A DNA stretch of 64,000 nucleotides from Candidatus Bathyarchaeia archaeon (GTDB lineage: Archaea; Thermoproteota; Bathyarchaeia; Bathyarchaeales; Bathycorpusculaceae), in contig JBEKTQ010000014.1 of NCBI GenBank assembly GCA_049515895.1, positions 20,943-84,942 of the forward strand, read 5' to 3'. A program made the position numbers and the translations under genes. Numbering within the stretch: the first letter of the stretch is position 1; every line of letters begins with the position of its first letter. Positions 10,839 to 28,474 of the stretch are shown here, piece by piece. Below the pieces are notes generated by a model. It searched no databases. It was not told the DNA's origin and saw nothing but the letters and a program-made list of their open reading frames with translations.

Positions 10839-10966
10839 TTACGATCCCTGGTACCCCTAATTTTGAATTTTTGGTTTCACAGAATGTTATAGGTTTTTAA
10901 TATAAAAGATTATGTAAGAAACCCATTATAGGCTTTTTTCACCATATTTGTTAAGATATGAATTTC

Positions 10967-11846: not shown

Positions 11847-13313
11847 TTAGAGTTTGAAGGTTGCACCTGGTTCCTTTAACAGATAGACGTTTTTTGACCA
11901 TTTTGTGTATGCTTGAGCATTTTCTGTATGAATCGGAATAACAGTTTTTGGGCTAACTTGTTCAACAAACTCCTTAAGCTGATTTGCCGAAGCATGCCCT
12001 GAAACATGAGTTGAGGTTATGCCCAATCCAAAATGGTTTATCCAGTTTTGGATTCTCTCCCAATCAATTTCCATTTCCGCATCAAAAGGCTCACAAACCG
12101 ATTTAATGTAAACCGATCCCTCAATGGGGTCAATGTCGATTAGCTCCTTAAGATCAAAGTTGGTACAGAACATTAAGTAGTCTTTTTGGTTGGCTTTGAT
12201 GTCTTTATAGCAGATAGAACGGTCGAGGTATGGTCGTTCCCATGTGTCGTAATCTTGGTTGCGTATCTTCAGGTCACACTTGCTGCTGCCTATGAGTCCC
12301 CAACTTTTCCTGTTAGCATAAAACGTAATGTTCCCATCGTCCAATTTAGGTGCTAATGTGTCTGAGCATTTAGAAAGTTGGTCGAGCAAATATGCTTGCT
12401 TGAGAGAAATTGCGAGCTTCTTATCCATTTTCTTAGCTGCGTTTAGGAAGGAGAGCATTCGATCCGTGTCTCTAACAGACCAATTACAGACTGAAATCCC
12501 TTTTGCACCATTAGAAATGTTACAGATCTCATCTTCCACGTCTGCTTCTTTTTTTGACGACTCCTCATCAACTCTTGTTCCTTCTATAACCAATAAATCG
12601 GGTCTAGCATCTTTGCAGGCATACATAAATTCAGTAGTTTCCTTTTCTCTGCGTCCATGAAATCTAAAATCACCTGTGTAGACAACGGTACCTGACGAAG
12701 TGTGAATAATGTACCCAGTTGCTCCTGAAAGTGAGTGGTCAACTCGATAAGGTTCAATGGTCAGATGCTTTATTTTGAAGGGTTTGCCAAATTCGAACGT
12801 TTGATAGTTTCGGTCAACTTTTAGGTCTTCGTGAGATTGAGTAGTCTTACGGCTTAACTCACCTTTCTTGTTAACGTACGTTTCAAAGCACCGGGTCAAA
12901 TCCGTTATATCGTTGAAGCTTCCTGCGCCTGTATCATTCATCGCCTTAAGAATACGGTAACTTTCTTGCGAGCAGAAAATGGGCAAATCCTCCCGAAGGT
13001 GGTTTATGTAAGAAGCATGGTCCGCATGGGCATGCGATAAAAGCATCCCATCAAAACCCAGCGACTCATGAGGACGCTCCATATGCTTAAGAAAATCTTC
13101 TCTGTAGAGTCCTTTAAGATCTGGAATAAGATTGAACTCGATAAAGTCGCCTAGGCCGTTGCATTTTCTGGGCTGCAAGAACTCCGAAAAATATTTGTTT
13201 GCCTGACTAAAACTCATTCCAAAATCCAAAAAAATCTTTGTGTCTCCGTCTTCAAGCAGAATCTTGTTACCGCCGATCTCGTTAACTCCGCCGTAAAACG
13301 TCAGCTCAACCAT
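11847..13313 (-). CDS. Metallo-beta-lactamase/beta-CASP nuclease (RNase J-like)
   Basis: GGVNEIGGN, SHAHADH, VDHS, YTGDFRFHG, HVSGHA, IPIHTE motifs. Confidence 0.85.
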   Translation of the reverse strand: MVELTFYGGVNEIGGNKILLEDGDTKIFLDFGMSFSQANKYFSEFLQPRKCNGLGDFIEFNLIPDLKGLYREDFLKHMERPHESLGFDGMLLSHAHADHASYINHLREDLPIFCSQESYRILKAMNDTGAGSFNDITDLTRCFETYVNKKGELSRKTTQSHEDLKVDRNYQTFEFGKPFKIKHLTIEPYRVDHSLSGATGYIIHTSSGTVVYTGDFRFHGRREKETTEFMYACKDARPDLLVIEGTRVDEESSKKEADVEDEICNISNGAKGISVCNWSVRDTDRMLSFLNAAKKMDKKLAISLKQAYLLDQLSKCSDTLAPKLDDGNITFYANRKSWGLIGSSKCDLKIRNQDYDTWERPYLDRSICYKDIKANQKDYLMFCTNFDLKELIDIDPIEGSVYIKSVCEPFDAEMEIDWERIQNWINHFGLGITSTHVSGHASANQLKEFVEQVSPKTVIPIHTENAQAYTKWSKNVYLLKEPGATFKL

Positions 13314-13599
13314 AATCGCTCGCTTCTACCGAACACATTAGTTTGAAGTCTTAATAGAAGCTTCTGAATTCCGGGCCTAGATTTTATAAGTTCTAACCTT
13401 AAACGCTGTAGGCCTCTAATGGATTTGCACTGAATCGGAGTCGGAACTATCATTTTAAGATCACTAACTTCCTCTAAAAATATAGAAAAAGCGCGCACGA
13501 GTGCCATGACTCAAGCTATGCTTGACGGTTTCGCAAATGTTTGCTAATGAATATATAGTAAATTTCTTAAACGAATTTGCCAAATAGTATTGGTGATGT

Positions 13600-15444
13600 T
13601 TGGTGTCTGTTCCAAAAGGTATTCATGGAATCGCAAAGAATGTTTTTGAACTATTAATGAACAAAAAATACAAACTTGACTATTACCAAAGAGAATATAC
13701 TTGGGAGACTTCGAACATAATCGAGCTCTTGGAAGATCTTACTTCCAAATTCTTTGTAGCTTTTGACAAGAATGATAATCGCGAAGACGTTAAGAAATAT
13801 CCTACTTACTTTCTTGGTTCAATAGTAATTAATGAAAAAGAGAGCGGTAATTTCATAATTGATGGGCAGCAACGTCTTACATCCTTAACTCTCCTTTTAA
13901 TGTACCTTAATAATTTGCAGCAAAACATTCCAGAAAAAGTCAGTTTAGACTATTTGATTTTTTCAGAATCATTCGGAAAGAAATCATTCAACCTTGAAGT
14001 AGATGAAAGAGACGCATGCATGGCCGCTCTTTACAAAAACAGTATTTTGGATGTGACAAACGCTAACGAATCGGTTAAGAACCTTTATGCACGTTACCAA
14101 GACATCAAAGAAAATTTTCCTGAAGATTTGGAAAATAACAGTCTACCCTTTTTCATCGATTGGTTGTTAAACAGAGTTGAAATGGTTGAAATTAGAGCAT
14201 TCAGCGACGAAGATGCATACACTATTTTTGAGACAATGAACGATCGTGGTGTCACACTAAACCCAACTGATATGCTAAAAGGGTACCTTCTAACGAATAT
14301 GCATCCAGACAGCAGGTTGGCTGCAAATCAATTATGGCGAAGCCAAGTGGGCGACCTAATAAAAATAGACAAAAATGAGGAAACTAATTTCTTTAAGGTG
14401 TGGCTGAGAGCAAAATATGCTCAGTCTATACGGGAGAGAAAAAGAGGCGCGATTAACCAAGATTGGGAGAACATTAACTCTTATCATCGATGGTTACGTC
14501 ATGAATCCAAAGAATTGAAGCTTGAGAACCCAAACGATTTCTCAAATATTGTGACCTGTAATTTTAAATTCTTCTCCACTCAGCATATTAGAAATCTCAT
14601 AGCTTCTGTCATGCTGAGCGAAGGAATGGAATACGTTTATTATAATGCCAGCAATGAATTTACGCTTCAATACCCTTTATTGCTTGCACCTCTCAAAACT
14701 GCTGATGACAACAATGTTATCGACAAAAAAATCAGGCTCGTGGCTGGATATATTGACATATTTATAGCCAGAAGAGTTTGGAATCAAAGAACACTCGGCT
14801 ACTCTTCAATTGTCTACACTATGTTCAACTTAATGAAGGAGATAAGGGACAAGACTGTTGAGGAACTCGTAAGTATTCTTACAATGAAGGTTCAACAAAT
14901 GGAAGAAACCTTCGAGTCTTACCCTGCATTTTCCTTGAACCAGCAAAATCGTAGATACATCCATCGTTTGTTGGCTAGAATTACACAACATATCGAGGAG
15001 CAAAGTGGAATTCCATCGCGCTATGAAGATTACATTTCAAGTGAAATAGCCAAACCCTTTGAAATCGAACACATATGGGCTAAGAAATTTGATTACCATA
15101 CAGATGAATTTGATAATGATTACGAATTTCAGGAATACAGAAATCGTATAGGCGGATTACTTTTAGTTCAAAGAGGTTTTAACCAAAGTTATGGAGAACT
15201 GCCGTACGTAGATAAGTTACCCCTCTATTTTGGTCAAAACCTTCTAGCAAAAAGCCTGAACCCAAATTGTTACAAATCAAATCCTAGCTTTGAAACTTAC
15301 ATCAAAGCGAGTGGCTTGCAGTTTCAGGCTCATCAAAATTTCAAAAAAAGCGATCTTGAACAGCGGATGATGCTTTACAAAGAAATTTGCAAGGAAATCT
15401 GGAACCCAAATAGGTTCGCGGCAGAATTAATGGGTACCGTCTAG
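13600..15444 (+). CDS. DUF262-DUF1524 (GmrSD/SspE-like) modification-dependent nuclease
   Basis: YQREYTW, IDGQQRLT, FETMNDRG (DUF262); IEHIW...N..G.L...N HNH-like DUF1524. Confidence 0.9.
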   Translation: MVSVPKGIHGIAKNVFELLMNKKYKLDYYQREYTWETSNIIELLEDLTSKFFVAFDKNDNREDVKKYPTYFLGSIVINEKESGNFIIDGQQRLTSLTLLLMYLNNLQQNIPEKVSLDYLIFSESFGKKSFNLEVDERDACMAALYKNSILDVTNANESVKNLYARYQDIKENFPEDLENNSLPFFIDWLLNRVEMVEIRAFSDEDAYTIFETMNDRGVTLNPTDMLKGYLLTNMHPDSRLAANQLWRSQVGDLIKIDKNEETNFFKVWLRAKYAQSIRERKRGAINQDWENINSYHRWLRHESKELKLENPNDFSNIVTCNFKFFSTQHIRNLIASVMLSEGMEYVYYNASNEFTLQYPLLLAPLKTADDNNVIDKKIRLVAGYIDIFIARRVWNQRTLGYSSIVYTMFNLMKEIRDKTVEELVSILTMKVQQMEETFESYPAFSLNQQNRRYIHRLLARITQHIEEQSGIPSRYEDYISSEIAKPFEIEHIWAKKFDYHTDEFDNDYEFQEYRNRIGGLLLVQRGFNQSYGELPYVDKLPLYFGQNLLAKSLNPNCYKSNPSFETYIKASGLQFQAHQNFKKSDLEQRMMLYKEICKEIWNPNRFAAELMGTV

Positions 15445-15457: not shown

Positions 15458-16603
15458 ATGAATCAAATAACTGACAACTCTTTTGAGTTGAGCATGCGAC
15501 AGAACCAAAATCAGCTTGAGTGCAAACTAACAAAAACCCCTTGCATATCTATGACTGTAGCTTCAAAGGAATTCTTCCTAGAACAAAAAACACTTTCAAG
15601 CATAATAGATTCCTACAGCACCGTTGCTAAGCTGGTTGGAAAAAAGAAGACAAGAAATATAGATTTTTTTGAAGCTCTATCGATTTTGGGCGCTGAAATC
15701 GGCTTTGGGATCGCAAATATTTTTGAACATTTTGGATTAATGTACACCAAAAGGCGTATCAACCTAACACTAAAACTGGATGATTGGACTCGAAGAATCC
15801 CATGGGAACTAGCCATGGTCCCAGATTACCCAGAACAACTGCTCTGCGAAAGATTCAATATTGGAAGAGCAATGGATGTTGAATGTAAAAATCAATGGGA
15901 AACAGCTCCTAACACGAAAACAAGTAAACGGAGTTTAAAATCATTAGTTGTCGGACTAAATTACACGAAGAATTCAATATACACTCCATTAGATCGGTCA
16001 GAAGAAGATGCTAAAGCAGTACACGAATACTTGACAAAATTCTCAAAAAGCAAGAATGGAAGAGACTTGGAAGTTCTTCCAAAACTAATAGGTGGAAACG
16101 CAAGAAAAGAGACATTGGAAAAACGGTTAAAAGAAGGAATAACTATGTTTCATTTTTCTGGGCATGGAGAACTTTACAGAAATATTGGCAAAATAATTCT
16201 AGCTAATGATAAACAATTAACAACTAAGGAACTCAGTTGCATATTCTATAACAATCAAACTAGGGCACCGACATTTTCTTTCATGAACGCATGCGAGACC
16301 TGCCTTCAAAAAAATGGTGAATCGGACATCCATGATTGGGCCCTCGCAATGGCTACATATGGCGCTAGGGCTCTAATCGGTACTTTTTGGAGCGTTATGG
16401 ATGAAGATGCAACCGATTTTTCATTAGCATTCTATAGGTATTTCTTGAAGGAAGGAAAGACGATAGGCGATTCTGTACGGAGAGCAAGACTCTTTGTTAA
16501 GGATAAGAAAACTGAAGGAAACGATTTAGACCCCATGGTCACTTGGTCCGCATTCGTGCTGTATGGTCCTCCTATGTTAAAAGCAAGAGATATTTTGGTA
16601 TAA
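15458..16603 (+). CDS. Stand-alone CHAT-domain (caspase-like) protease
   Basis: IPWELA, FHFSGHG (catalytic His), NACET (catalytic Cys), GTFWSV.D, WSAFVLYG. Confidence 0.85.
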   Translation: MNQITDNSFELSMRQNQNQLECKLTKTPCISMTVASKEFFLEQKTLSSIIDSYSTVAKLVGKKKTRNIDFFEALSILGAEIGFGIANIFEHFGLMYTKRRINLTLKLDDWTRRIPWELAMVPDYPEQLLCERFNIGRAMDVECKNQWETAPNTKTSKRSLKSLVVGLNYTKNSIYTPLDRSEEDAKAVHEYLTKFSKSKNGRDLEVLPKLIGGNARKETLEKRLKEGITMFHFSGHGELYRNIGKIILANDKQLTTKELSCIFYNNQTRAPTFSFMNACETCLQKNGESDIHDWALAMATYGARALIGTFWSVMDEDATDFSLAFYRYFLKEGKTIGDSVRRARLFVKDKKTEGNDLDPMVTWSAFVLYGPPMLKARDILV

Positions 16604-16786: not shown

Positions 16787-17902
16787 ATGACAATAATTGT
16801 CGCAGTGAAGTTCTCCAACGGAGTAGTTGTTGCAACAGATAGTAGGTCCATTTATGGAGAAGCACAATATGTACGAGACACGGAAAGAAAGATAGATACC
16901 TTAAACGATAAAGTTGCCGTCACTTCTTCAGGAATCAGGGCAGCGTCTAATAGAATATTCAAAGAGCTTAGATCTTATGTGGAAGCAAATGAGAATCTAA
17001 CTTTTGACGAAATTGTTAGTGAATGTGAAGATCTCATGAGGAACTTTTATAAAAGGTACAGTGGTCGTCTGAAGGAAGAGTTAGAGGACGGTTGGAGTTT
17101 TGAGCTGTTTTCCTCGGAAAGAATGGTTATTATTGAATCTGATGGAGTTGCTGACGAAGAAGAAAGTTATCTTTGTGATGGAAGTGGTACTCCCTATGCT
17201 GAGTACATTCTGCGACAGCGTTACAAGCCAGATCTTACAGAACAAGAATGCAAAGAACTTGCCTGCTATGTTGTTCTTCAAACATCTCTGATAGACCCTA
17301 ATGTCGGAGGACCCGTAAATCTGTGCGTTCTAAAAGAAATAGGTCTTAAGCACTTAACACGCCCTGAAATAGACGAGATTGTCGAGAATATCAAAGAAAC
17401 TCCTATAGAACAACAAATAAAAATTCAAAGTTTAGTTGAGGAAATTGTTGAGGAAAGACGATGGATTAATGACTTGTTTAAAAACAAATTCAAGACAGCC
17501 TTATTCAAACAGGATGAATACGCCATTTCGCAGATTCAAAAAACTTGCAAAAACGAAAACGATTTTACCAACAGAATATCGGCGCTAGCGGTATTGATAG
17601 ACCGAACGGAATCATTAGATGTTGATGACAGACTTGGAGAAAAAAACAAGGCTTCCATCAATCGGTTGCAAGTCTTCGCAGATAAAAATATGCCCAAGCT
17701 AAATCCTGAGTGTATTAAAAATCTAAGAGAAATCTACACGCTTAGAAGCCACAAGATGCCAATTCACGAAGATGATCCAAGATTAATGCAGATACTCCTT
17801 CAATGGGAATACAAGATACCACCTAACTGGGGAAATCTTTGGGAGAAAGCTCTCACAAAATATCGGGACAGCCTAAAGATGTTGAAAGCAGCTGTTCAGT
17901 GA
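16787..17902 (+). CDS. Proteasome beta-type Ntn protease fused to a C-terminal HEPN-like domain
   Basis: M-T-IIVAV...ATDSR...RKI...GSG...IDPNVGG (Thr1/Asp17/Lys33/Ser129/Asp166 equivalents); C-terminal helical domain with LRSHKMPIH. Confidence 0.75.
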   Translation: MTIIVAVKFSNGVVVATDSRSIYGEAQYVRDTERKIDTLNDKVAVTSSGIRAASNRIFKELRSYVEANENLTFDEIVSECEDLMRNFYKRYSGRLKEELEDGWSFELFSSERMVIIESDGVADEEESYLCDGSGTPYAEYILRQRYKPDLTEQECKELACYVVLQTSLIDPNVGGPVNLCVLKEIGLKHLTRPEIDEIVENIKETPIEQQIKIQSLVEEIVEERRWINDLFKNKFKTALFKQDEYAISQIQKTCKNENDFTNRISALAVLIDRTESLDVDDRLGEKNKASINRLQVFADKNMPKLNPECIKNLREIYTLRSHKMPIHEDDPRLMQILLQWEYKIPPNWGNLWEKALTKYRDSLKMLKAAVQ

Positions 17903-18064: not shown

Positions 18065-19159
18065 TTGGCTAAAAAACATGTATTGCTCGTCGAACCTGAC
18101 TATTATACTCAATTCCCGCCGCTAGGACTGCTAAAGCTTTCCACTTTTTATAAGAATCAAGGTTCAACTACAGAATTGATTCGTGGAACTAAGGATTGTA
18201 GCCGGGAACCTGATTTAATTTACATTACCAGTCTTTTCACGTGGTCTTGGGAACCAGTGTGGAAAGCAGTTAGATTCTACTCCACCTCATTTCCAAGTTC
18301 AGACCTATGGCTGGGTGGACTTTACGCTTCTTTGATGCCCGAGCATGCAGCACTAAGTGGAGTTCACACTGACCACGTTTTCAAAGGAATATTTCCTGAA
18401 GCTGAAAATCTTCGTCCAGATTATAGTCTTGTACCAGAATGGAATCAAAAGGAAAAAGCGAGTATTCTCTTCTCATCCAGAGGTTGCATAAGAAACTGTG
18501 GATTCTGCGCAGTTCCACAATTGGAAGGCAAAATAGTTACTAACAGCTCACAAATTAGTGATTTGCTTTATCCTGAACACACTAAGATCATATTATTTGA
18601 CAACAATTTTTTGGCTTCTTCAAAATGGGAAAGCACTCTTGAGGAGATTAAGAGTCTCGATTTGAGAGTGGATTTCAATCAAGGTTTGGATGCTAGACTG
18701 ATAACACCTTTAGTTGCTAAGAAATTGGCAAAGGTCAAAATTGACAAGGTAATTAGATTGTCGTATGACAATTGCCAAACTGGAACAAATGTTGAGAAAG
18801 CAATTAAGCTTCTCAAATCTGAAGGAATTAATGGAAAAAGCATACTCGTGTACACGCTATTCAATTTCACAGACGATCCACAGGACTTTTTTGAACGCAT
18901 GAAAGATGTTCTCAAATGGGGCGCAGTCTGTTACCCGATGCGTTATGAGCCTTTGCGAACACTTTTCAAAAACAAATATGTTTCTTCAAAATGGACAGCT
19001 AACGAACTTGAAGCAATTCAGAGAGCACGCAGAGTAATCGGTTTTGGAGGAGCTTTTGCACCTCATAAGGGCATGCTAAACGTAAAAGTGGAAAACTGTA
19101 ACACTTTCGAAAAAGCTTTCAAGGAGTTTATGAATCCAGAGGCGAAGATAGAAGAATGA
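18065..19159 (+). CDS. Radical SAM enzyme with B12-binding-like N-terminus
   Basis: FPPLGLLKLS...ITSLFTW...LGGLYAS; SRGCIRNCGFC (CxxxCxxC); DNNFL; FNQGLDAR. Confidence 0.85.
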   Translation: MAKKHVLLVEPDYYTQFPPLGLLKLSTFYKNQGSTTELIRGTKDCSREPDLIYITSLFTWSWEPVWKAVRFYSTSFPSSDLWLGGLYASLMPEHAALSGVHTDHVFKGIFPEAENLRPDYSLVPEWNQKEKASILFSSRGCIRNCGFCAVPQLEGKIVTNSSQISDLLYPEHTKIILFDNNFLASSKWESTLEEIKSLDLRVDFNQGLDARLITPLVAKKLAKVKIDKVIRLSYDNCQTGTNVEKAIKLLKSEGINGKSILVYTLFNFTDDPQDFFERMKDVLKWGAVCYPMRYEPLRTLFKNKYVSSKWTANELEAIQRARRVIGFGGAFAPHKGMLNVKVENCNTFEKAFKEFMNPEAKIEE

Positions 19160-20466
19160 TTTGTACATGTTGCGGTTTTGAAATTCAAGGTCAAACTCAC
19201 CAAATCGAAAATGGAGAAAAACAAGTTTGTGACAAATGTTGGAATAATCCTTCTTTCTTTTTTTCTGAAAAAGCAAAGACGGACACTCGTTTCAAACTGC
19301 TTTCCGAAATTGCTGTACAAAATCAAAACAGCCCAAAAACAATCGAAATAAGTGTTCTAAAATTATCTCAGAAAAACATTGATCTTTACATTGGAAAAAT
19401 GAAATCCAAGGATATATTGCAACTCTACGAAGTTGACAAGTTTAAAGATGAGGAACTTGAAGGCTATCAACGTGAACAATATGAAGAAAGGACATCAGAA
19501 CTAATAGAATACCTTACTGAATGTCCCATTGCCGTAATGCCAAGCCTCTTTGTCAGTCTGAGGAATGCGAAATTTGTAGCATCGAAAGACGATTTTGGTA
19601 TTCTCCGAATTCCAAAGGTCAGAGGTGCAATTTGGATAATCGACGGTCAACATAGAGTAGGAGGATTTGAAAAGCTTTATCAGAAGTTTACTTATCAGCG
19701 AAAACCAAATGAAATTTCGACCGAAACATTTGCAACACTCATGGATTATGAACTCCCAATAGTTTTCATAGATACGCAAAAAGCAGCAGTAAAAACGAAT
19801 ACCTTGAAAATGGGAAAAAGCGAAATAATGCCAGAAGACCTTGAGAGGGCAATATTTTTTGTTGTCAACAAGACTCAGAAAGGAATTAGCTCTTCGCTAA
19901 AAGATGCGTTACTTTACCGCCTGAATGTTAGCGGAATTGATGGAATTCCAGCTTTAAGAAAAGAAAAGTGGAGAATTCAAGCTGCACACGTTGGTATTTC
20001 TTTAAATCGAGAGCTTGATTCACCTCTTAAAGGTTTGATTAATATTGGTGGAAAAGCGGGAACAAGAAAGCCAATCCAGTTGAACTCTTTTGTTTCCTCC
20101 TTAGAACTGCTTTTCAACGACAAGAATTTTGCGAAATTGGAATATAACAAGCAAGTCCAGTTTTTAAAATTCTATTGGGAATCCCTGAGAAAAAATGTTC
20201 CTCAAGCATTCGATTTAGCATCTTGGAGAGATTATATGCTTCTAAAAGCTATTGGAGTTTATTGTGTTCATTGGCTTGCGTTAGATGTCTTCAACATCTG
20301 CTTAACGAACGAACAGCGTTTTGATGAGCAGGAGACTTTAGATAAAATTGTTAGCAAGATGAGTGATTTTGACTGGAAAACACAAACGTCGCTATTGTCA
20401 ACATTGGGCGGTCTCAAAGGTGCTAAGCGGGGCTACGAGAAAATCAAACTTTGTTTAACAACCTGA
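19156..20466 (+). CDS. DGQHR-domain (DndB/DpdB-like, ParB-superfamily) protein with N-terminal Zn finger
   Basis: GYQR, IIDGQHR, FFVVNKTQK; N-terminal CTCC...CDKC; ATGA overlap with the radical SAM gene. Confidence 0.85.
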   Translation: MICTCCGFEIQGQTHQIENGEKQVCDKCWNNPSFFFSEKAKTDTRFKLLSEIAVQNQNSPKTIEISVLKLSQKNIDLYIGKMKSKDILQLYEVDKFKDEELEGYQREQYEERTSELIEYLTECPIAVMPSLFVSLRNAKFVASKDDFGILRIPKVRGAIWIIDGQHRVGGFEKLYQKFTYQRKPNEISTETFATLMDYELPIVFIDTQKAAVKTNTLKMGKSEIMPEDLERAIFFVVNKTQKGISSSLKDALLYRLNVSGIDGIPALRKEKWRIQAAHVGISLNRELDSPLKGLINIGGKAGTRKPIQLNSFVSSLELLFNDKNFAKLEYNKQVQFLKFYWESLRKNVPQAFDLASWRDYMLLKAIGVYCVHWLALDVFNICLTNEQRFDEQETLDKIVSKMSDFDWKTQTSLLSTLGGLKGAKRGYEKIKLCLTT

Positions 20467-20569
20467 CAACCTAAAATCCTCTTTCTTTTCAGAAAACTGG
20501 TAACACATAATAGATGTTATATATCAAGTCTGCCAACTGTTAGACAACCGCGAGGTTACGACCTAAGAA

Positions 20570-22672
20570 ATGAGCCTGAAGGGTCTTTCTCTTAAGAAAT
20601 CTTACAATTCAGATACCGACAATATCCTTCAAGATTTCTACATTCGATCTCTTTCCGTTTCAATAGAATATAAAAGACTAACAGGTTTCTTCTCGTCAAC
20701 GACCCTCGCTTTAGCGGCAAAGGGGATGACTGCCTTTATTCGTAATGGCGGGACGATGAAACTGGTTACAGGTGCACGTTTTCAAGAAGCAGATATTCGA
20801 GCAATAAAAGAATCCCTTGAATCTCCTGAAGAAATTTTGAAAGAAGAAATGTTAAAAGAGCTTAACACTCTCGAAGACAAATTCATAAAGGATCATGTAC
20901 GTGCTTTAGGTTGGATGATTGTTAACAAGCGATTAAAAATAAAAGTTGCAATAGTCCTCTCAGATGATGGGTATCCTCTTGAGTCGAGAAAAGTGGAGAA
21001 ACAAGGTATATTCCATCAAAAAGTGGGAATATTGGAAGATTTTGAAGGAGATATGGTTTCTTTCAGCGGTTCAGACAACGAAAGTGCACACGGTTGGCAA
21101 AAAAACATTGAAGAATTCAAAGTTTTCAGAAGCTGGGAAACAGGTGAGTCGGAGTACTTTCAATCCGATTTGGAAAAATTCAATCGGTTCTGGGATGGAA
21201 ACGCTATCAGAACAAAAATCATCGACATCCCAAAAGCAATTGAGGAGAAGCTTATCCAAATTGCTCCTAAAAACTTTGAAGAATTAGACTTAGAGCAACC
21301 TGAAGTAGTTCAAAGTAACGTTGCTGAACCTAAACTTAGACCTTATCAAGTAAAGGCAGTCGGGGATTGGATAAACAATGGCTACTATGGAATTTTTGAA
21401 ATGGCTACAGGAACAGGCAAGACCTTCACCGCATTAGCATGCATGGATACACTGATGAAAAAAGAAAACAAAATAGTCACAGTAATCAGTGCACCTTACA
21501 ATCATCTATGCGAGCAATGGATAGCTGAAACTGACAAATTCGGCATCAAGACCGTTAAATTAGTCTGCGATTCCACTGAACCTCATTGGAAGGACAAACT
21601 AGTCGATAACCTGATTGACCTTGAAAATGGAGTGATTGAAAACCTGACGATTTACACTACTCATAACACATTTTCTTCAACGGATTTTACGGAAATAGTT
21701 AGAGAAAACAAGTTAGATAACGCTAATCTGAAGTTCTTTCTTATTGTCGATGAGGTGCATGGAATAGGAGCACCAATTAGGCGTAATGGGCTTATTGACG
21801 AATACGATTTTCGATTAGGACTCAGTGCTACTCCGAAAAGATGGTTTGATTACGAGGGAACTGATAGAATATTTGATTACTTTAAAGATGTAGTCTTTAG
21901 TTTTCCGTTGAAAGATGCCATTCAAGCTGGTTTTCTAACACCATATGTGTACAAACCATTTTTTGCATTTTTAACAGAAAAAGAAATGAAAAGTTATGAA
22001 GAGGAGACTCGTAAAGTCTCAAGAGCATATTATGCTTCGAGGAATGACGTTGAAAGAGACGAGGCTTATACTCTACTATGTATAAAACGACAACGTATCG
22101 TTCGAAATGCTGAAAACAAGCTGATTGAGTTCCAAAAAATATTGGATAAAATTGGTTCTTTGCAAAATTGCCTAATTTACAGTTCACCCCAGCAAATCAA
22201 GATTGTCCAAGAAACTTTAAACAAAAGAAATATCATTCAACACAAGTTCACACAGCAGGAAGGTACAAAACCTGAAAGTAAGTTTGAAGGACTTTCCGAG
22301 AGAGATTTTCTAATCAAAAGATTTTCAGAGGGGTTCTATCAGGCATTAGTCTCTATGAAGTGCCTTGATGAAGGAGTCGATGTACCTCCAGCTCGGGTTG
22401 CAATTATCTTAGATAACTCAGGTAATCCACGAGAGTACATTCAACGAAGAGGGCGAGTCTTGCGTCTTTTTCCTGGAAAGTCAATAGCTACAATTTACGA
22501 TATAATTGTTGAGCCGAGATTAAATAACGCAACCCCAATTGAACTTAAGGAACTTGAAAAAAAGATAGTTTTAAAAGAACTTCAGAGATACAGAGACTTC
22601 GCTGAATCCTCCAATAATGTTGACGAATGCTTGAGGACGTTAAATGAAATAGAAGCAGCATATGGCATTTGA
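20570..22672 (+). CDS. pbeA: PLD(HKD)-nuclease + SF2 helicase, PbeA-like
   Basis: FHQKVG...FSGSDNES PLD-like motif; MATGTGKT, DEVH, LSATP, LDEGVDVP, IQRRGRVLR. Confidence 0.75.
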   Translation: MSLKGLSLKKSYNSDTDNILQDFYIRSLSVSIEYKRLTGFFSSTTLALAAKGMTAFIRNGGTMKLVTGARFQEADIRAIKESLESPEEILKEEMLKELNTLEDKFIKDHVRALGWMIVNKRLKIKVAIVLSDDGYPLESRKVEKQGIFHQKVGILEDFEGDMVSFSGSDNESAHGWQKNIEEFKVFRSWETGESEYFQSDLEKFNRFWDGNAIRTKIIDIPKAIEEKLIQIAPKNFEELDLEQPEVVQSNVAEPKLRPYQVKAVGDWINNGYYGIFEMATGTGKTFTALACMDTLMKKENKIVTVISAPYNHLCEQWIAETDKFGIKTVKLVCDSTEPHWKDKLVDNLIDLENGVIENLTIYTTHNTFSSTDFTEIVRENKLDNANLKFFLIVDEVHGIGAPIRRNGLIDEYDFRLGLSATPKRWFDYEGTDRIFDYFKDVVFSFPLKDAIQAGFLTPYVYKPFFAFLTEKEMKSYEEETRKVSRAYYASRNDVERDEAYTLLCIKRQRIVRNAENKLIEFQKILDKIGSLQNCLIYSSPQQIKIVQETLNKRNIIQHKFTQQEGTKPESKFEGLSERDFLIKRFSEGFYQALVSMKCLDEGVDVPPARVAIILDNSGNPREYIQRRGRVLRLFPGKSIATIYDIIVEPRLNNATPIELKELEKKIVLKELQRYRDFAESSNNVDECLRTLNEIEAAYGI

Positions 22673-22687
22673 TAAGAGAGAGAGAAA

Positions 22688-22885
22688 ATGTCGTCAGTAA
22701 ATAGAAAGATAATAAACCAAATTGAAAATAGCGACTACACGCCTGAAATCAAAGAACTGCTAAACTCCTTACTACAAATAGAAGCCAGAATCGCCGAAGA
22801 CAAGAAACCTCACTATTCGGAAGATTATGACAGAGTGATAAAAAACCTTGCCAAGAAACGAGGGTATCGGGAGGATGAAGAGTGA
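22688..22885 (+). CDS. pbeB: Small helical protein, PbeB-like
   Basis: 65 aa; assigned by position between helicase and ATPase, coupled to the next gene. Confidence 0.55.
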   Translation: MSSVNRKIINQIENSDYTPEIKELLNSLLQIEARIAEDKKPHYSEDYDRVIKNLAKKRGYREDEE

Positions 22886-24870
22886 ATCTCGACTATCTTC
22901 AAATGAAAAATTTCCGACAATATCAGGACGCTCGAATAGAGTTCTCTCAATCTCCAACAAGAAATTTCACAATTATTCAAGGGGTAATGGGGGCTGGAAA
23001 AACTAACATTCTAAATGCTGTAACTTGGTGTCTCTTTGGAGACGAGAAACACATTGATAAGAAATACAAAGGGCTTCCAATTGTTAATACTTCAGCCCTT
23101 TCAAAATGCGAGGGAAAAGTTTGCGAAGTCAAAGTTGAACTGCAAATTATTCAGAGCGATGGAAAGCGAATTAGAGTAACCAGATGTGAGAATTGGAGAG
23201 AGCAAAACAGTAACTTATCAAAAATTAGTATGCAACATGACTTTTCTATAATGAGAGAAACTGGAAGGGATTGGGTTGGACCAATTTATGGGGATGATGC
23301 GCAATATATCGTTGATAGCCTAATTCCTCCTTCGATTGAGGAATACTTCTTTTTTGACGGCGAACGAATGAATGATTACTTCAGGGAAAATACTGGTAAG
23401 GACATCAAAAGTGCAGTTTTTAAAATTTCTCAATTAGAACTTTGCGAATCGCTAATTTCACACCTATCGGCAAGAAGAAGTGAGTATCTAAGACTATCAA
23501 GAGGACTAAGCTCGAAAGCAAATGATATTAAAATGATTGTTGAAACCCTCGAGAAGTCGCAAGAATCAGACAAAGAACGTTTGAAAGAACTATTGAGAGA
23601 TCAAGCAGAAGCACAACGAATAGAAAAAGAATACAGTGATAAGCTACGAAATTCATCGCTTGAAAGAATTGAGAGCTTAGAAGAACGCCGAGTTGGTTTG
23701 GAAGACGATTTAGAGCGTATCGCTGATGACATCGAGGAACTAGAAAAAGAGAAAGTGCAATTCCTTCATAAGAATATGCCAATAATCTTTGCTTTTGATG
23801 CCCTTACAAAAACTAAATCGCTGATAGAAGGGCGAAAAGAAGCTGGAATGATACCTCCGCCAGTTAAGACAGTTTTTATCGACAGCTTACTTAAAAAAGG
23901 AAAATGCATTTGCGGAAGTGACATAACCGCCAAAGACGAGCTTTCTTGCACAAGAAGAAAAAGAGTTGAGGCTTTTCTAAGGCAAAGTGAATTGTCGGAA
24001 ATGAGCAATGACCTAATCAACTGCAATGTTCAGATTCAAGCTATGATTGACCAAGTCAAAGTTTTTCCAGATACTTCAGTACAGTTAGGTAAAAGATTAA
24101 GAGAACTCCAAACACTTAAGGACACAAAAAACACGGACGTTGAAAAAATAAAGGTAGAAATTTCGCAAAGCAATGCGGAGAATATTAAAGAATGGGGAAA
24201 AGAAAGAGACAAATATAATGAGAAAAAAATCAAAATAGGAAATGAAGCGGCCATTCTCAATAGTACCATTGGCAGACGTGACAACATAATTAGAGCAAGA
24301 ACGAGTGAATTTACAAGGGAACTGAAGAAAGAGGCAAGGCACAACTCCCTTGTTAGTCTAATGACTTTTTGTGAAGAAGGAATACATGCCGCACAAGAAG
24401 TCAGAGATGCTATTATGAAAAATGTCAAAGATGAGATATGTAAGAAAACAAGTGAGCAATTTCTCTCACTGATTTGGAAAAAAGGAACCTACAATGGCGT
24501 TGTAATTGATGATGACTACAATATCTCAGTGCCCCATGTCTCTGGGCGAGAAGGGCTGGGAACACTTTCGGCTGGGGAACGGCAAGTTTGTGCCTTATCA
24601 TTCATGGCGGCGTTGAATAGCGTTTCTGGTTTTGACGTTCCAATCATAATAGACACACCTTTAGCAAGAATATCTAATGAACCGACAAGAAGCATTGCTG
24701 AGAATCTTCCTAATTATCTGCCTAACAAACAAGTTTCATTGCTAGTAACAGACAAGGAGTATACCCCTGAAGTAAAAGAAACCTTAAGCAAAGTAGTCGG
24801 TAAAACATACATAATAAATTTCATAGAAAAAGACTATGGTGGTTTATCGGAGCTGGTGTTTCAATCATGA
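22882..24870 (+). CDS. pbeC: SMC/Rad50-like ABC ATPase of the DndD/PbeC (CxC hook) clade
   Basis: NFRQY, GVMGAGKT (Walker A), YFFFDGE, coiled coil with CICG hook, LSAGERQ signature, IIDTPLAR (Walker B). Confidence 0.8.
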   Translation: MNLDYLQMKNFRQYQDARIEFSQSPTRNFTIIQGVMGAGKTNILNAVTWCLFGDEKHIDKKYKGLPIVNTSALSKCEGKVCEVKVELQIIQSDGKRIRVTRCENWREQNSNLSKISMQHDFSIMRETGRDWVGPIYGDDAQYIVDSLIPPSIEEYFFFDGERMNDYFRENTGKDIKSAVFKISQLELCESLISHLSARRSEYLRLSRGLSSKANDIKMIVETLEKSQESDKERLKELLRDQAEAQRIEKEYSDKLRNSSLERIESLEERRVGLEDDLERIADDIEELEKEKVQFLHKNMPIIFAFDALTKTKSLIEGRKEAGMIPPPVKTVFIDSLLKKGKCICGSDITAKDELSCTRRKRVEAFLRQSELSEMSNDLINCNVQIQAMIDQVKVFPDTSVQLGKRLRELQTLKDTKNTDVEKIKVEISQSNAENIKEWGKERDKYNEKKIKIGNEAAILNSTIGRRDNIIRARTSEFTRELKKEARHNSLVSLMTFCEEGIHAAQEVRDAIMKNVKDEICKKTSEQFLSLIWKKGTYNGVVIDDDYNISVPHVSGREGLGTLSAGERQVCALSFMAALNSVSGFDVPIIIDTPLARISNEPTRSIAENLPNYLPNKQVSLLVTDKEYTPEVKETLSKVVGKTYIINFIEKDYGGLSELVFQS

Positions 24871-25811
24871 GCGAAAGAAAAAAGCCAGACAGATTTTATG
24901 TGGAAAAGAAGGATAGAGAAGACTGGAATAGACTCAAAGACAAAGACAGCCCATTTGCAGGTGCTGACAATAAAGATGTTTTCATAGCTGCAATGATGAC
25001 AGGTTACTTTGAAAAAGCCGAATTTGAGCTTAAGACTAAAGACGGGTATTTCTTCGCAGACAATTTAAAGCCGCAGGAAGAGGCAATTGTAAAAGCTATT
25101 GCTGTTTCAAAAACTGGAAGTCTGAATGTTCTCCTTGACACTGAGAGAGTTTACGAAATTGCTGAGCAGTATGCCACAGGAGGACTAAAAATCCTCAAAA
25201 ACAAGGTCTTTAGCGGTGAATACGGGTCATACTCCAAAAAACTTGAAGCTGAATTACTCCGACAGTACACCAAGATTACCCAAAACGTACCTGCTCCTCC
25301 GACTGTTGATGAACTTGAAGGAATACCATTAATGGATCTAATTTTAGGAGGAGAAACAGACAAAGTAGAGCTCAAATCTTCATTCCTATGGGATTACCAA
25401 AAAAAGTCATACTCCAAAGAAGTCAAGATCGCTGTGGTTCGAGCAATTGCATCTTTCATGAATTCAGAAGGTGGCTTTTTGATTATTGGAGTGGACAATG
25501 ACCAAAATCCACTTGGATTAGAGCTTGACTGGACGCAATGTCAGAACAGTTTTGATGTGTGGAAGCAGACTCTTGCTAACGCTATAAACACTTACCTTGG
25601 AAGAATTAACAACATTCTTGTGACTAGCCGTAAAGAGAAATTTGAAGATAAAGACGTTGTAATACTGAGGATAAAGAAATCGCCACACCCTGTATATCTA
25701 ACCTACGAAGACAAAAAACAGGATTTCTTCATACGGGGAGATGGTACGTCTCAGCAATTGAGCATGAGCGATACAACTCAATATGTGCAGGAACATTGGA
25801 AAGATCAGTAG
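24867..25811 (+). CDS. pbeD: PbeD/DndE-like protein fused to an AlbA_2 (Schlafen-like) domain
   Basis: N-terminal NKDVFIAAM..GY...IAEQYATGGL..L; C-terminal ETDKVELKSS...IASFMNSEGGFLIIGVDND...FFIRGDG. Confidence 0.7.
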   Translation: MSERKKPDRFYVEKKDREDWNRLKDKDSPFAGADNKDVFIAAMMTGYFEKAEFELKTKDGYFFADNLKPQEEAIVKAIAVSKTGSLNVLLDTERVYEIAEQYATGGLKILKNKVFSGEYGSYSKKLEAELLRQYTKITQNVPAPPTVDELEGIPLMDLILGGETDKVELKSSFLWDYQKKSYSKEVKIAVVRAIASFMNSEGGFLIIGVDNDQNPLGLELDWTQCQNSFDVWKQTLANAINTYLGRINNILVTSRKEKFEDKDVVILRIKKSPHPVYLTYEDKKQDFFIRGDGTSQQLSMSDTTQYVQEHWKDQ

Positions 25812-25937: not shown

Positions 25938-26663
25938 TTGATCTCCTTGAATAACTTCAAACCTGAAGACAAAGTGTTTCTAGCTGTCTTTGTTCTATTA
26001 TTTGGGATTGTAATTCTCAATATTGCCACTGGCTACTTGGGCTTTCTGTTCCAATCCCCTTCTGGAGTGACTTCACCATTTGCAATAATATCGAGTGCTT
26101 CAATATTGTTCTGCTTTATTCTCTGGGGATTTGTAAAATTGACCAGAAACCAACTCAGAGATAAAAAACTCGGAGTTAAGGGCATTTCAAGCCTAATGTA
26201 TGTTAAAACTGCGAAAATAATCGGTTTAAGAAAGCCATCGCTCCGCGGTTCAGTATTTATTATAGGTTGCCTGATTGTCGGTGTTTTTGTGAATCTGTTT
26301 ACTTTGTTGATTCTTGCGAGATTAGGTCTTGGTACACTTTACCGTGTAACTAACCCAACTCTTTACACTTATGTTTCAAACCTTGTAGTTCCACCTATTT
26401 TTGAAGAGTTCATCTACAGAGGGATTTACCTAGGAGTATTCTTGAAACTGTTCGGAAGCAGCCCAAAATTCGCAATTATTGGTCTTATAATGTCCTCCTT
26501 TACCTTTGCATGGATTCACCCTTCGGAACCATTTGTTAAGTTGGTTGGAGGTTTCTTATTAGGTTCTGTTTATTTGGTTCGTTGGAAGAAGAACATTGTC
26601 GCTTGTTCAGCAACGCATTTCGGGTTTAACTTGATTGGAACTTTCCTATTGTTAGTGATTTGA
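25938..26663 (+). CDS. CPBP/Abi (CAAX) intramembrane metalloprotease
   Basis: Multiple TM segments; PIFEEFIYRG, FAWIH, HFGFN. Confidence 0.85.
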   Translation: MISLNNFKPEDKVFLAVFVLLFGIVILNIATGYLGFLFQSPSGVTSPFAIISSASILFCFILWGFVKLTRNQLRDKKLGVKGISSLMYVKTAKIIGLRKPSLRGSVFIIGCLIVGVFVNLFTLLILARLGLGTLYRVTNPTLYTYVSNLVVPPIFEEFIYRGIYLGVFLKLFGSSPKFAIIGLIMSSFTFAWIHPSEPFVKLVGGFLLGSVYLVRWKKNIVACSATHFGFNLIGTFLLLVI

Positions 26664-26712
26664 ATTCATGCAGAGTTGTTTGGGTTCATGAGTTTAAGGT
26701 TGTAAAATAGCT

Positions 26713-27180
26713 TCACAAAGAAGAAAGAAGCGTATAAACAGTTAAGGCAATGATTATGGAATAGAGTGCAATAAACATTATCGGACACCATTTTTCAGTA
26801 GAAGCTAAACCTTTACGCTTTCCCGAATAGTTTCTTTCTTCAAATTTGAACACGCTTGCTGGCATCGATTGCTCAAGTTCATGAATTACTTTAAACTTAG
26901 CTGCGTTCAACTCTTTGTAAGATGCTATACTTTGAATCCAAACCACAGAGATTATTATTCCCATCACCGACAAAAGGATAAAGACAGCATGTTGATTAAT
27001 AATTGTTAGATATCCAGCTATACCCAAAACGATTGAGCTTAGAGTAAGATAGAACTTGTTTGATTCAAGCCTTTTTGAAGTCACATCAAGAGAGGTTTCC
27101 ACATAGAGTTTGTACTGTTCAAGCAAATGCTCCTGAAGGTGTTCTCCATAGTTTTTGTTTATGAGTTCATCGCTTGCCAA
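26713..27180 (-). CDS. Small 3-TM membrane effector (RipA/SLATT-like)
   Basis: EQYKLYVE...KRLESNKFY, two TM helices, W..SY.ELN.AKFKVIHELE..P, final TM helix. Confidence 0.65.
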   Translation of the reverse strand: MASDELINKNYGEHLQEHLLEQYKLYVETSLDVTSKRLESNKFYLTLSSIVLGIAGYLTIINQHAVFILLSVMGIIISVVWIQSIASYKELNAAKFKVIHELEQSMPASVFKFEERNYSGKRKGLASTEKWCPIMFIALYSIIIALTVYTLLSSL

Positions 27181-27660
27181 CTAGTCATTCTCCAACTCAT
27201 TCTGTATTGCGTTTAAGTCCCAATTTATGACCTTCGCATGGTTGTCTTTGCATGGTTGAGGAATCTTGTGGTTTTCATCTCGATAAATTCTAACGCAGAC
27301 AACCTTTTTGTTTAGTTCATAGGCTTTGTTGATTTCCCAATTAACTGCTTCTCTTTGGTGAGTTTCAGGTCCGACCATAACAATGACAACAGAAGTGCGA
27401 TTAATTCGATCAGTACATTGTGTTTTCCACTTTTCGTCGAAAGGTTCTTTGACAGAATAGTCTGTGAATTGAATGTCTGATTGTTCATCTTTGGCTTGCT
27501 GCCTCAACAGGTTGACTTGCGCTTCATCTTCAACATGAAAGCTAATGAAAACTCGGGGTTTAGGGGTTCTTTCGTTATGGTCAGCATAGTCGTCCAATGT
27601 TTTGCTTTTTCCTGATGAAGATACGTGTGATTTTCGGAAACCACGACCTCCTCCACCCAT
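27181..27660 (-). CDS. TIR-like domain protein (ThsB/DUF1863 type)
   Basis: RVFISF...DYSVKEPF...I..TSVVIVMVG.ET..REAVNWEI with the catalytic Glu. Confidence 0.85.
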   Translation of the reverse strand: MGGGGRGFRKSHVSSSGKSKTLDDYADHNERTPKPRVFISFHVEDEAQVNLLRQQAKDEQSDIQFTDYSVKEPFDEKWKTQCTDRINRTSVVIVMVGPETHQREAVNWEINKAYELNKKVVCVRIYRDENHKIPQPCKDNHAKVINWDLNAIQNELEND

Positions 27661-27661
27661 G

Positions 27662-28474
27662 TCAGTTCCCCTCCAGTAATGTCTTCTGTAGCCTCAAGTT
27701 CTTTATGTTGTTGCAAAGCTGCGCAAAGTTTTCTGTTATTACTTGTGCGTTGTAGCCCCCAGTGTATTTAGTCTGTTTTGTTCCAACAAATTTCCATCCA
27801 TTTAATGCAGCAACGAAATGGGCGGAAGTTACAAATCTATCAGCAAATGAATACTCTTGTAGCCTTTTTTGAGAACTGAATCCATACAAGATTAGTTTTT
27901 CAGCATTCTTACGTATTGCCAACGAAAGCGTTCTAGCTTGTCTAATCATTGACCGATTTCCATTCCTGAAGAAGTCGGATATGTGAAAAACGAATTCATC
28001 TATTCCATAAGACTTCAACTGTTTAAGGTGGTTTACCACTTGAGTTTCTGAACAGCCCTTGACTAAACCAATTGGTTTAACATTGGGAACGAGAGAAAGT
28101 AATTCTTCATTTTCCCTATGAATTCTTTTAAGCTCCTGTGAAGAAACAAGAAACTCACCATCATAGGTTTCACCGTCAACGGTTGTAAAGGAATCTGGAT
28201 GCAACGAGTTTATTGCTGTAGCATAGTTTGTAGGCTTAAGGTTTGCAATTAGCCCATCTTTCATTATTAATGAAAGAACAATCTGACCATTGAAATTCAA
28301 GAATTTGCGTAAGCCACCAGCAGACTCTATTTGCTTGAATGTTCCGTTAAACTGAAACGAGGTTTTGGAAATCAAGTCCTGAAATCGAACTACAACAAGG
28401 TCGAGAGGAACAACTTTGAGAACCCCAAAAGTTTCCTTTGTGTCGAGCCTAATTATAGGACTTAGTGTTACCAT
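27662..28474 (-). CDS. Divergent TGT/DpdA-like TIM-barrel protein
   Basis: FTTVD, PIGLVKG, LILYGFSS, ADRFVTSAHF..A..G echo TGT-fold motifs, but the D-S-F-D-S aspartate is not conserved. Confidence 0.45.
   Translation of the reverse strand: MVTLSPIIRLDTKETFGVLKVVPLDLVVVRFQDLISKTSFQFNGTFKQIESAGGLRKFLNFNGQIVLSLIMKDGLIANLKPTNYATAINSLHPDSFTTVDGETYDGEFLVSSQELKRIHRENEELLSLVPNVKPIGLVKGCSETQVVNHLKQLKSYGIDEFVFHISDFFRNGNRSMIRQARTLSLAIRKNAEKLILYGFSSQKRLQEYSFADRFVTSAHFVAALNGWKFVGTKQTKYTGGYNAQVITENFAQLCNNIKNLRLQKTLLEGN

Follow-up and report, generated by a model that had tools for sequence, protein, structure and literature searches.

A radical SAM enzyme as a candidate self-marking partner of Pbe-type restriction modules

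In this work we analyzed a 64,000-nt stretch of DNA (the window) from a Candidatus Bathyarchaeia archaeon (GenBank assembly GCA_049515895.1, contig JBEKTQ010000014.1, positions 20,943 to 84,942 of the forward strand). Six co-oriented and partly overlapping genes on its plus strand (18065-25811) encode a PbeABCD-like restriction module headed by a radical S-adenosylmethionine (SAM) enzyme and a DGQHR-domain protein. We consider it probable that the radical SAM enzyme writes the self mark in a modification-restriction system of the Pbe type. Such systems are known; the new element is the radical SAM enzyme as a candidate modifier class. We infer that its substrate is DNA, that its product is a stable mark made by the chemistry considered below, and that the Pbe machine reads this mark.

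The CxC systems were reportedly first described by Krishnan et al. in 2020. In the available part of a 2024 paper the CxC ABC ATPase-DndE system of Aravind's group is equated with Pbe (PMC10853773). Pbe defence requires the Dnd mark, and the virus SNJ1 escapes it when phosphorothioate-modified, according to the accessible part of Xiong et al. (2019; PMC6459918), where dndCD is located near only 233 of 553 PbeAC pairs, 320 of the 553 are without dnd genes, and for 165 the neighbourhood contains no known modifier. The partners of Pbe/CxC named in the accessible parts of the two papers are dnd genes, C5 and N4 cytosine methylases and MTaX1, not radical SAM enzymes (PMC10853773; PMC6459918); in the available text of the former, "Radical SAM" appears only within the discussion of DndC. 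Our literature search found no description of a radical SAM enzyme linked to DGQHR, Pbe/CxC or DISARM, which the original CxC paper or supplementary tables could contain, and a single co-mention of radical SAM and DGQHR, an unrelated case.

Gene content of the cassette and of the host genome

The cassette consists of the following genes (aa, amino acids):

18065..19159, plus strand: radical SAM enzyme of 364 aa, recognized by its CxxxCxxC motif and predicted fold; candidate DNA-marking enzyme
19156..20466, plus strand: DGQHR-domain protein of 436 aa (TIGR03187), ParB/Srx superfamily, DndB/DpdB-like, with an N-terminal Zn ribbon
20570..22672, plus strand: PbeA of 700 aa (PADLOC PbeA), a PLD/HKD nuclease fused to an SF2 helicase
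22688..22885, plus strand: small protein of 65 aa in the PbeB position, between PbeA and PbeC
22882..24870, plus strand: PbeC (PADLOC PbeC), a CxC-hook ABC ATPase
24867..25811, plus strand: protein of 314 aa with a PbeD-like N-terminal part and a C-terminal AlbA_2/Schlafen-type domain (TIGR04062, SLFN_AlbA_2)

An earlier note on this window had listed six co-oriented genes, and all six open reading frames (ORFs) were confirmed at these positions on the plus strand. Start and stop codons overlap by 4 bases between the radical SAM and DGQHR genes (ATGA), between the small ORF and PbeC (GTGA), and between PbeC and PbeD (ATGA); the DGQHR gene and PbeA are separated by 103 bases, and PbeA and the small ORF by 15 bases.

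PbeA matched the PADLOC PbeA model over residues 2-686 (E 6.5e-225). It has ResIII and Helicase_C domains and a PLD-type N-terminus (NF042964, E 2.3e-17), 13 homologues all retain its residues H149, K151, and D157, and TIGR04095 matched at E 3.4e-125, under the 600-bit cut-off. PbeC (PADLOC PbeC, E 5.2e-132) carries a Walker A motif, GVMGAGKT, at position 34 and C-I-C at 342-344, and scored 155 bits against the DndD model TIGR03185, under the cut-off of 245.85. A small protein between PbeA and PbeC belongs to a Pbe system, and the 65-aa ORF takes this place; it has no family match apart from a weak one to AbiEi (E 0.0028), and in 8 genome loci tblastn detected a homologue at the corresponding place. 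The small protein of the Pbe cassette is described as rapidly evolving in the available part of PMC10853773. The last gene had been called DndE/PbeD-like in the earlier note, which fits the N-terminal part and is incomplete for the whole. Residues 25-120 match TIGR04062 (dnd_assoc_4; E 2.6e-5, 24.4 bits against a cut-off of 74.25), Pfam gave no DndE match, and phmmer linked the protein to 41 of the 49 short PbeD ORFs of PbeA loci, but the C-terminal half is an SLFN_AlbA_2 domain (E 3.1e-17, residues 163-298), for which phmmer against PDB sequences returned weak Schlafen matches only (best E 3.8e-4). The same PbeD-AlbA_2 fusion was present in 7 genome loci and 7 metagenome loci.

In the order and close coupling of PbeA, the small protein, and the CxC-hook PbeC, with a PbeD-like gene at the end, the module resembles the DndCDEA-PbeABCD system of archaea as presented in the accessible part of Xiong et al. 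(2019; PMC6459918), and both have an archaeal host, recognized here by its ribosomal protein S8e. It differs from that system in that the radical SAM and DGQHR genes stand in place of the modification genes and in the additional AlbA_2 domain of PbeD.

The earlier note had found no DndC or PAPS reductase in the window, and this absence extends to the whole genome (3.18 Mb in 53 contigs, completeness score 100%) as searched with TIGR03183, PAPS_reduct, and Pbe-linked queries. The DndC model TIGR03183 gave no match across the 53 contigs. PAPS_reduct gave two sub-threshold matches only, to an asparagine-synthase-like protein and to GMP synthase (GuaA). No PF08870 (DndE) match was obtained in a search whose controls were also silent, and nothing was found with DndC and DndE proteins taken from Pbe-linked metagenome loci. 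No dndC, dndD, dndE or other PAPS-reductase-type enzyme was thus found in the genome; dndA was not searched for. The earlier note would have given up its proposal for a dnd cluster elsewhere in the genome and a radical SAM linkage that is not conserved; no DndC or DndE was found and the linkage recurs, as described in the next section. The radical SAM gene is present in 3 of 61 related genomes (this one included) and in 2 of 36 other genomes of the genus, and is therefore an accessory gene. A search of the genome for McrA found none, so the host is not an mcr-type methanogen.

Linkage of radical SAM genes to Pbe and other modules

An alignment of 13 PbeAs was used to collect 80 metagenome loci, in which PbeA is 37-66% identical to that of the window. 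A radical SAM homologue was detected by tblastn in 43 of the 80 loci (an overestimate for Pbe systems at large; see the last section), usually on the same strand as its direct neighbour, either PbeD upstream or PbeA downstream, with 0-150 bases in between. Genes of the dnd type were present in 12 of the 80, with DndA, DndB, DndC, and DndE confirmed by Pfam on cluster representatives. The two occurred together only once, in L192, which carries a 270-aa DndC-like fragment. The cassette has flanks of 2.5 kb or more on either side in 32 loci, of which 22 had a radical SAM gene, 5 had dnd genes, and 5 had neither; three of these last five have a DNA methylase (L189, L203, L242) and two have nothing recognizable (L204, L237). 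Methylases were called with our own hidden Markov models (HMMs) of three methylase families, built from methylases found in this analysis. A Pfam search of 130 flanking ORFs of at least 200 aa gave C5 DNA_methylase as the sole recurring methylase, with 2 members, among the best 25 of 106 families. In dnd-linked loci a 341-aa protein upstream of PbeA had no match in Pfam, PADLOC or NCBIfam.

At least three switches between radical SAM and dnd are needed on the PbeA tree, where, for example, a radical SAM-linked clade is nested among dnd-linked rows. Well-supported branches of the radical SAM tree force Pbe linkage in at least seven places, with the metagenome rows labelled as linked by construction. 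Pairwise distances of the radical SAM enzyme correlated with those of PbeA (rho 0.44) and PbeC (rho 0.41), compared with rho 0.89 between PbeA and PbeC (Mantel, p = 0.001, n = 46). These values indicate that the radical SAM gene travels with Pbe and is exchanged more freely than the Pbe genes among themselves, as modification modules are. Because one of radical SAM, dnd or methylase genes is found per Pbe locus and they have been swapped repeatedly, we placed the radical SAM enzyme in the modifier slot. This slot had been proposed in the earlier note, and the proposal stands as far as gene context goes: the radical SAM gene is the commonest partner of the sampled PbeAs (43 of 80; 22 of 32), is nearly exclusive with dnd, has been swapped with it at least three times, and in the window belongs to a genome in which no dnd genes were found. 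That the enzyme marks DNA is what we infer from this context.

The linkage was also examined from the other side. Homologues of the radical SAM enzyme are numerous (2737 at E<=1e-3 among 5200 candidates), and many are approximately 60% identical across archaea and bacteria. A scan with one genome per species yielded 468 relatives, and the best 80 loci were analyzed. Pbe genes were found in 15 of these 80 loci, in several orders and orientations. The synteny count called for in the earlier note thus gave recurrent radical SAM-Pbe linkage from both the PbeA-seeded (43 of 80) and the radical SAM-seeded (15 of 80) sets, and we concluded that the arrangement is not a chance adjacency, since it recurs in many unrelated contigs. 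The triple of radical SAM, DGQHR, and pbe genes recurs in its radical SAM-Pbe part, but most radical SAM-Pbe loci have no DGQHR gene. A DGQHR gene of the same family was present in 25 of the 80 radical SAM loci; of the 76 loci with an intact radical SAM ORF, 21 have it immediately adjacent and in the same orientation.

The pair is also found with DISARM genes. DISARM normally carries a methylase along with DrmABC. The radical SAM-DGQHR pair forms one co-oriented cassette with DrmA, DrmB, and DrmC in four loci:

L017, 9995-18927: DrmABC with radical SAM and DGQHR genes
L019, 9986-18766: DrmABC with radical SAM and DGQHR genes
L020, 510-12510: DrmABC with radical SAM and DGQHR genes
L021, 523-12522: DrmABC with radical SAM and DGQHR genes

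In L054 the radical SAM gene occurs with Drm genes and no DGQHR gene. A DNA methylase was not found in the DrmABC-radical SAM loci, either among the best 25 of 50 Pfam families or with our HMMs of three families, and the gene context suggests that the radical SAM-DGQHR pair may stand in for DrmMI or DrmMII. DrmABC is absent from the window and was found with the pair in related loci only, which sets the present locus apart from DISARM. Between DrmC and the radical SAM gene, L020 and L021 encode a 1116-aa protein with no match in Pfam, PADLOC or NCBIfam.

Other recurring neighbours of the radical SAM gene are GHKL ATPases, DGQHR-HEPN fusions, an SNF2 cassette with a weakly ParB-like protein, and type IIG restriction-methylases; the recurring partner in cluster 4 has a weak ParB match (E 4.6e-4). 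Plasmids of cultured bacteria gave 22 matching records with a distant radical SAM gene (product approximately 28% identical), and 11 of these have a DGQHR gene annotated beside it. One of these cassettes, on Novosphingobium aromaticivorans pNL1 (L246, 4090-14492), encodes a PIN-like protein, an ATP-binding protein, a DGQHR protein (335 aa), a radical SAM enzyme (537 aa), and a second ATP-binding protein, with a 769-aa DGQHR protein on the opposite strand and no Pbe. This 769-aa protein resembles the DGQHR-HEPN fusions of L015, L023, L026, and L072-L074; long DGQHR and DGQHR-HEPN proteins could be readers of the same mark that the radical SAM enzyme would write. In L005, L006, L022, and L024, two or three DGQHR paralogues (approximately 450, 416, and 375 aa) lie in tandem behind the radical SAM gene, and Pbe is absent from the stretch examined. 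A Terminase_6N-like ATPase (approximately 483 aa) and an ABC-ATPase with a GNAT-like region (approximately 485 aa) lie beside radical SAM-Pbe cassettes in L005, L008, L012, and L013 and may be another defence pair.

Phages carry related genes. We found 453 relatives of the radical SAM enzyme on viral contigs, most of them 30-35% identical and approximately 300 aa long, and counted the neighbours in 80 of these loci. SNF2 helicases were found in 13 loci, N6/N4 DNA methylases in 11, DUF5131 in 10, PAPS-reductases in 8, single-stranded DNA-binding proteins (SSB) in 8, C5 DNA methylases in 7, and DnaB in 5. By gene content, phage DNA-modification genes are typically found in such surroundings. In deposited phages, the radical SAM enzyme matched 17 records. 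Marinitoga camini virus 1 (L247, 6998-8080) encodes a 48% identical homologue as a lone gene; the virus is temperate, with a cultured Thermotogota host, and a HerA helicase and a NurA-like exonuclease adjoin the radical SAM gene on the opposite strand.

The genes on either side of the cassette in the window are as follows.

within 9114-15444, minus strand: Mrr_cat restriction endonuclease (574 aa), PD-(D/E)XK nuclease, and metallo-beta-lactamase/RMMBL protein
13600-15444, plus strand: GmrSD type IV restriction enzyme (PADLOC HEC-06, E 3.8e-37)
15458-16603, plus strand: CHAT-domain protease (E 7.6e-25)
16787-17902, plus strand: protein of 371 aa, the first ~185 residues of which match the proteasome beta subunit (Pfam E 1.2e-18), far under the archaeal equivalog cut-offs
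within 25938-28474, plus strand: CPBP/Rce1-like intramembrane protease
within 25938-28474, minus strand: 8xMP membrane protein (E 1.8e-27), ThsB-type TIR protein (E 4.8e-20), and a 270-aa ORF

The neighbouring nuclease and GmrSD genes place the cassette in a defence island. The CHAT protease and the proteasome-beta-like protein, directly upstream on the strand of the radical SAM gene, may be a separate conflict system, and the 8xMP and TIR genes downstream may be a TIR-based defence pair. An Rfam scan of the window detected no RNA family.

Predicted fold, partner protein and proposed chemistry

The enzyme is a member of the radical SAM superfamily. Its CxxxCxxC motif lies at C141, C145, and C148, and these are the sole invariant cysteines in an alignment of 24 homologues; its fold matches radical SAM enzymes. 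Family models recognize the sequence poorly: Pfam Radical_SAM (PF04055) matched at E 0.006 with 17.2 bits against a cut-off of 29.5, and several B12-radical SAM and MiaB/RimO models of NCBIfam matched at E 4e-4 to 4e-3, far under their cut-offs. An AF2 model calculated from the 24 homologues had a pLDDT of 82.0 and a pTM of 0.80. Foldseek returned as its neighbours MgmA (9ccb, top match, E 2.5e-10), TsrM, MiaB, CysS, TokK, AprD4, OxsB, and RimO. As in these proteins, a Rossmann-like (cobalamin-domain-like) N-terminal part precedes the radical SAM core in the model. The layout of two domains resembles that of the class B (cobalamin-dependent) radical SAM methyltransferases MgmA (9ccb), TsrM (6wtf), CysS (9n1d), TokK (7kdx), and OxsB (5ul4), with Foldseek E values of 2.5e-10 to 3.6e-6 and TM scores (query) of 0.52-0.60. 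It differs from them in that identity is 11-15%, the window enzyme is much shorter at 364 aa, and no Pfam or NCBIfam model comes near its cut-off. The label "B12-type" given in the earlier note is accordingly sustained at the level of the predicted fold but not by any sequence model.

None of these five methyltransferases is known to act on DNA. The genome contains two CobS genes, so a cobamide could be available. The predicted fold and the CobS genes would allow cobalamin-dependent C-methylation, which is the most likely chemistry in the mechanism proposed below. A methylthio mark, also suggested in the earlier note, is unlikely because no cysteines beyond CxxxCxxC are conserved. The three N-terminal cysteines that hold the second [4Fe-4S] cluster of MiaB/RimO methylthiotransferases are not present in the family; the single N-terminal cysteine of the window enzyme is unconserved in the homologue alignment. 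Longer forms of the enzyme occur beside Pbe, with 635-711 aa in L212, L223, L226, and L233 and 557-558 aa in L184, L200, and L201. Pfam recognizes the radical SAM core only in these proteins, and the extensions might replace a separate partner.

The DGQHR protein scored 102.3 bits with TIGR03187 (cut-off 58.85), has the DGQHR motif at 163-167, and carries an N-terminal CxxC...CxxC ribbon. Pfam DndB matched at E 2.1e-13 and PADLOC DpdB at E 1.3e-12 on residues 61-171. Assignment as a DndB or DpdB equivalog was rejected: the protein reached 42.5 of the required 300 bits with the DpdB model NF041060 and 35.8 of 450 with TIGR04172, in matches spanning only about residues 65-178. A structural model of it (pLDDT 83.9) gave no Foldseek match at E<=0.001, and phmmer against PDB sequences found nothing. 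With VIA-align, residues ~72-242 were nearest to ParB-type folds (PadC, Z 6.1, rmsd 3.1 over 99 residues; Pnob8 ParB-N, Z 5.9; SspE, Z 5.3; KorB, Z 5.1; sulfiredoxin, Z 5.1), Z values that are too low alone, agree with the sequence family, and are suggestive of a ParB-like fold.

DGQHR relatives keep company with DNA modifiers. Dpd is a 7-deazaguanine DNA modification-restriction system in which the transglycosylase DpdA comes with the DGQHR protein DpdB, and DpdB thus accompanies a DNA-modifying enzyme. Common to Dpd and the present locus is a DGQHR/ParB-like protein paired with a DNA modifier (here a candidate) beside helicase/nuclease restriction genes; the window locus differs from Dpd in having no DpdA or DpdC, in its radical SAM partner enzyme, and in the predicted Zn-ribbon docking module of its DGQHR protein. 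Another DGQHR relative, DndB, accompanies the DNA-modifying Dnd enzymes in the available text of PMC10853773.

Modelling of the radical SAM-DGQHR complex, with each protein given as an alignment, supports binding of the two proteins to each other. The three ipSAE values were 0.74, 0.74, and 0.77, compared with 0.00 for the best of three controls; in the calibration of the tool, 58 of the 80 solved complexes reached this mark, as did 2 of the 110 mismatched pairs. Contacts agreed by at least 94% between runs, and the partner pLDDT was at least 79. In the predicted interface the Zn ribbon and the next helix of the DGQHR protein (residues 4-8 and 27-57) lie against residues 59-101 and 268-308 of the radical SAM enzyme, and the DGQHR interface residues are among the invariant columns of its family. 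From the models, the DGQHR protein is the predicted docking and DNA-targeting partner of the radical SAM enzyme. It is less central than the earlier note implied. Here it is present and ATGA-coupled to the radical SAM gene, but it is missing from most radical SAM-Pbe loci, where the radical SAM gene is followed by a GHKL ATPase (5 loci) or by a 217-aa protein without a match in Pfam, PADLOC or NCBIfam (6 loci), or where the enzyme itself is extended to 557-711 aa or has no partner.

The mechanism we propose is as follows. PbeABCD would act as the restriction machine, made up of a PLD-helicase nuclease, a small protein, a CxC ABC ATPase, and a DndE-like DNA binder, and the self mark would be written by the radical SAM enzyme instead of DndCDEA. 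The [4Fe-4S] cluster of the enzyme and SAM would generate a 5'-deoxyadenosyl radical, and the enzyme would then functionalize a C-H position of a DNA nucleotide, most likely by C-methylation via the cobalamin-like N-terminal domain. In this locus the ParB/DndB/DpdB-like DGQHR protein would bind the radical SAM enzyme through its N-terminal Zn ribbon and bring it to DNA. Marked DNA would be spared by Pbe, and unmarked incoming DNA would be attacked.

Competing explanations and significance

Several points weigh against assigning the marking step to the radical SAM enzyme. The 80 PbeA loci are those most similar to queries from radical SAM-linked loci, so the count of 43 of 80 overstates the radical SAM share among all Pbe systems, and related loci are not independent of one another. 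Three of the 43 radical SAM-Pbe loci also carry a methylase detected with our HMMs, and in L036, L053, and L060 the radical SAM gene lies beside a type IIG enzyme with its own methylase (partial IIG genes in L049 and L050); the radical SAM enzyme is therefore not always a substitute for a methylase. The methylase checks covered the best 25 of 50 Pfam families in one scan and the best 25 of 106 in the other, along with the three methylase families of our HMMs. No co-oriented neighbour lies within 300 bases of 9 of the 76 intact radical SAM ORFs, and many neighbours match no family. The structural model is poor (pLDDT <50) around the Fe-S loop, residues 137-161, and cobalamin binding by the window enzyme is a fold-level prediction. 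The accessible part of PMC10853773 describes DndB as a regulator, not a modifier. The evidence for DNA modification by the radical SAM enzyme is comparative and model-based.

A different function for the radical SAM enzyme would be that of a separate defence effector which cooperates with Pbe or merely adjoins it. Like viperin-type enzymes, it might produce a nucleotide analogue with antiviral activity, or it might inflict radical damage on invading DNA, in either case with a partner such as DGQHR or a GHKL ATPase. We regard this as unlikely, though worth keeping in mind. It would account for the members found without Pbe beside GHKL ATPases, DGQHR-HEPN fusions, SNF2 cassettes, and type IIG enzymes, for the lone gene of Marinitoga camini virus 1, and for the pNL1 cassette with its PIN-like and DGQHR proteins; AprD4, a diol dehydratase, is among the structural neighbours. 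An effector would not, however, be expected to show near exclusivity with dnd or to be swapped with dnd on the PbeA tree. Its gene is placed tightly and in the same orientation inside Pbe and DrmABC cassettes, both of which already have nucleases of their own, and the phage copies lie among DNA methylases, like modifier genes.

The enzyme might instead leave DNA unmarked and serve the translocase-nuclease complexes as an accessory or regulatory subunit, either by modifying the PbeB-position protein or PbeD, or by making or sensing a small-molecule signal. Many radical SAM enzymes of this fold class act on peptides and proteins, and the top match, MgmA, methylates a protein glutamine; the Pbe core stays constant while the partner of the radical SAM enzyme varies. 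The rapidly evolving small protein of the cassette, as described in the available part of PMC10853773, also suits such a role. We give this explanation rather little weight, as it leaves unexplained the exclusion between radical SAM and dnd, the phage homologues beside DNA methylases, and the partners of DNA-binding type (DGQHR; the weak ParB match of cluster 4).

A role as an eraser, which would strip or change hypermodifications of phage DNA and thereby expose it to the nuclease module, is very improbable, and we know of no precedent for it. Radical chemistry is able to break C-C and C-N bonds, and the enzyme accompanies several kinds of nuclease module; against this, the phage-encoded homologues beside methylases fit a writer better, and the exclusivity with dnd would be unexplained. 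Exclusivity with dnd and the phage context thus fit the effector, accessory, and eraser roles less well. A chance clustering of unrelated genes, for which the setting in a defence island (Mrr-type and PD-(D/E)XK nucleases, GmrSD, CHAT, TIR protein) could be invoked, is hardly credible in view of the start/stop overlaps within the cassette, the linkage seen in several gene orders in 15 of 80 radical SAM-seeded and 43 of 80 PbeA-seeded loci, and the correlation of radical SAM and PbeA distances (rho 0.44).

The reading we prefer therefore remains that of a self-marking enzyme. More tentatively, and with slightly less than even confidence, we propose that members of a class-B-like radical SAM family write a novel C-H-derived mark directly on DNA and are combined, as interchangeable writers, with various translocase-nuclease immune machines (Pbe, DISARM-like DrmABC, SNF2 cassettes, and DGQHR-HEPN readers), aimed by swappable partners (DGQHR/ParB-like proteins, GHKL ATPases, or a PbeC-PbeD scanner).

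Cultured carriers of the radical SAM gene, which make experimental testing practical, include Methanoculleus sediminis S3Fa (L019), with the radical SAM-DGQHR-DrmABC cassette, Methanohalophilus euhalobius WG-1MB (L051), where the arrangement is Pbe-GHKL-radical SAM, Novosphingobium aromaticivorans DSM 12444 with plasmid pNL1 (L246), and several Rhizobium plasmids. Pbe systems that lack dnd might be dead or might read another mark, and a radical SAM gene beside more than half of the sampled PbeA loci provides a testable candidate for the writer of such a mark. If the broader proposal of an exchangeable writer is true, it would explain many "solitary" Pbe systems, and this would be the first restriction-modification-type immunity with a self mark made by radical chemistry. 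A radical SAM enzyme that marks DNA would represent a new epigenetic self-marking chemistry and would point to a DNA modification widespread in archaea, bacteria, plasmids, and phages.

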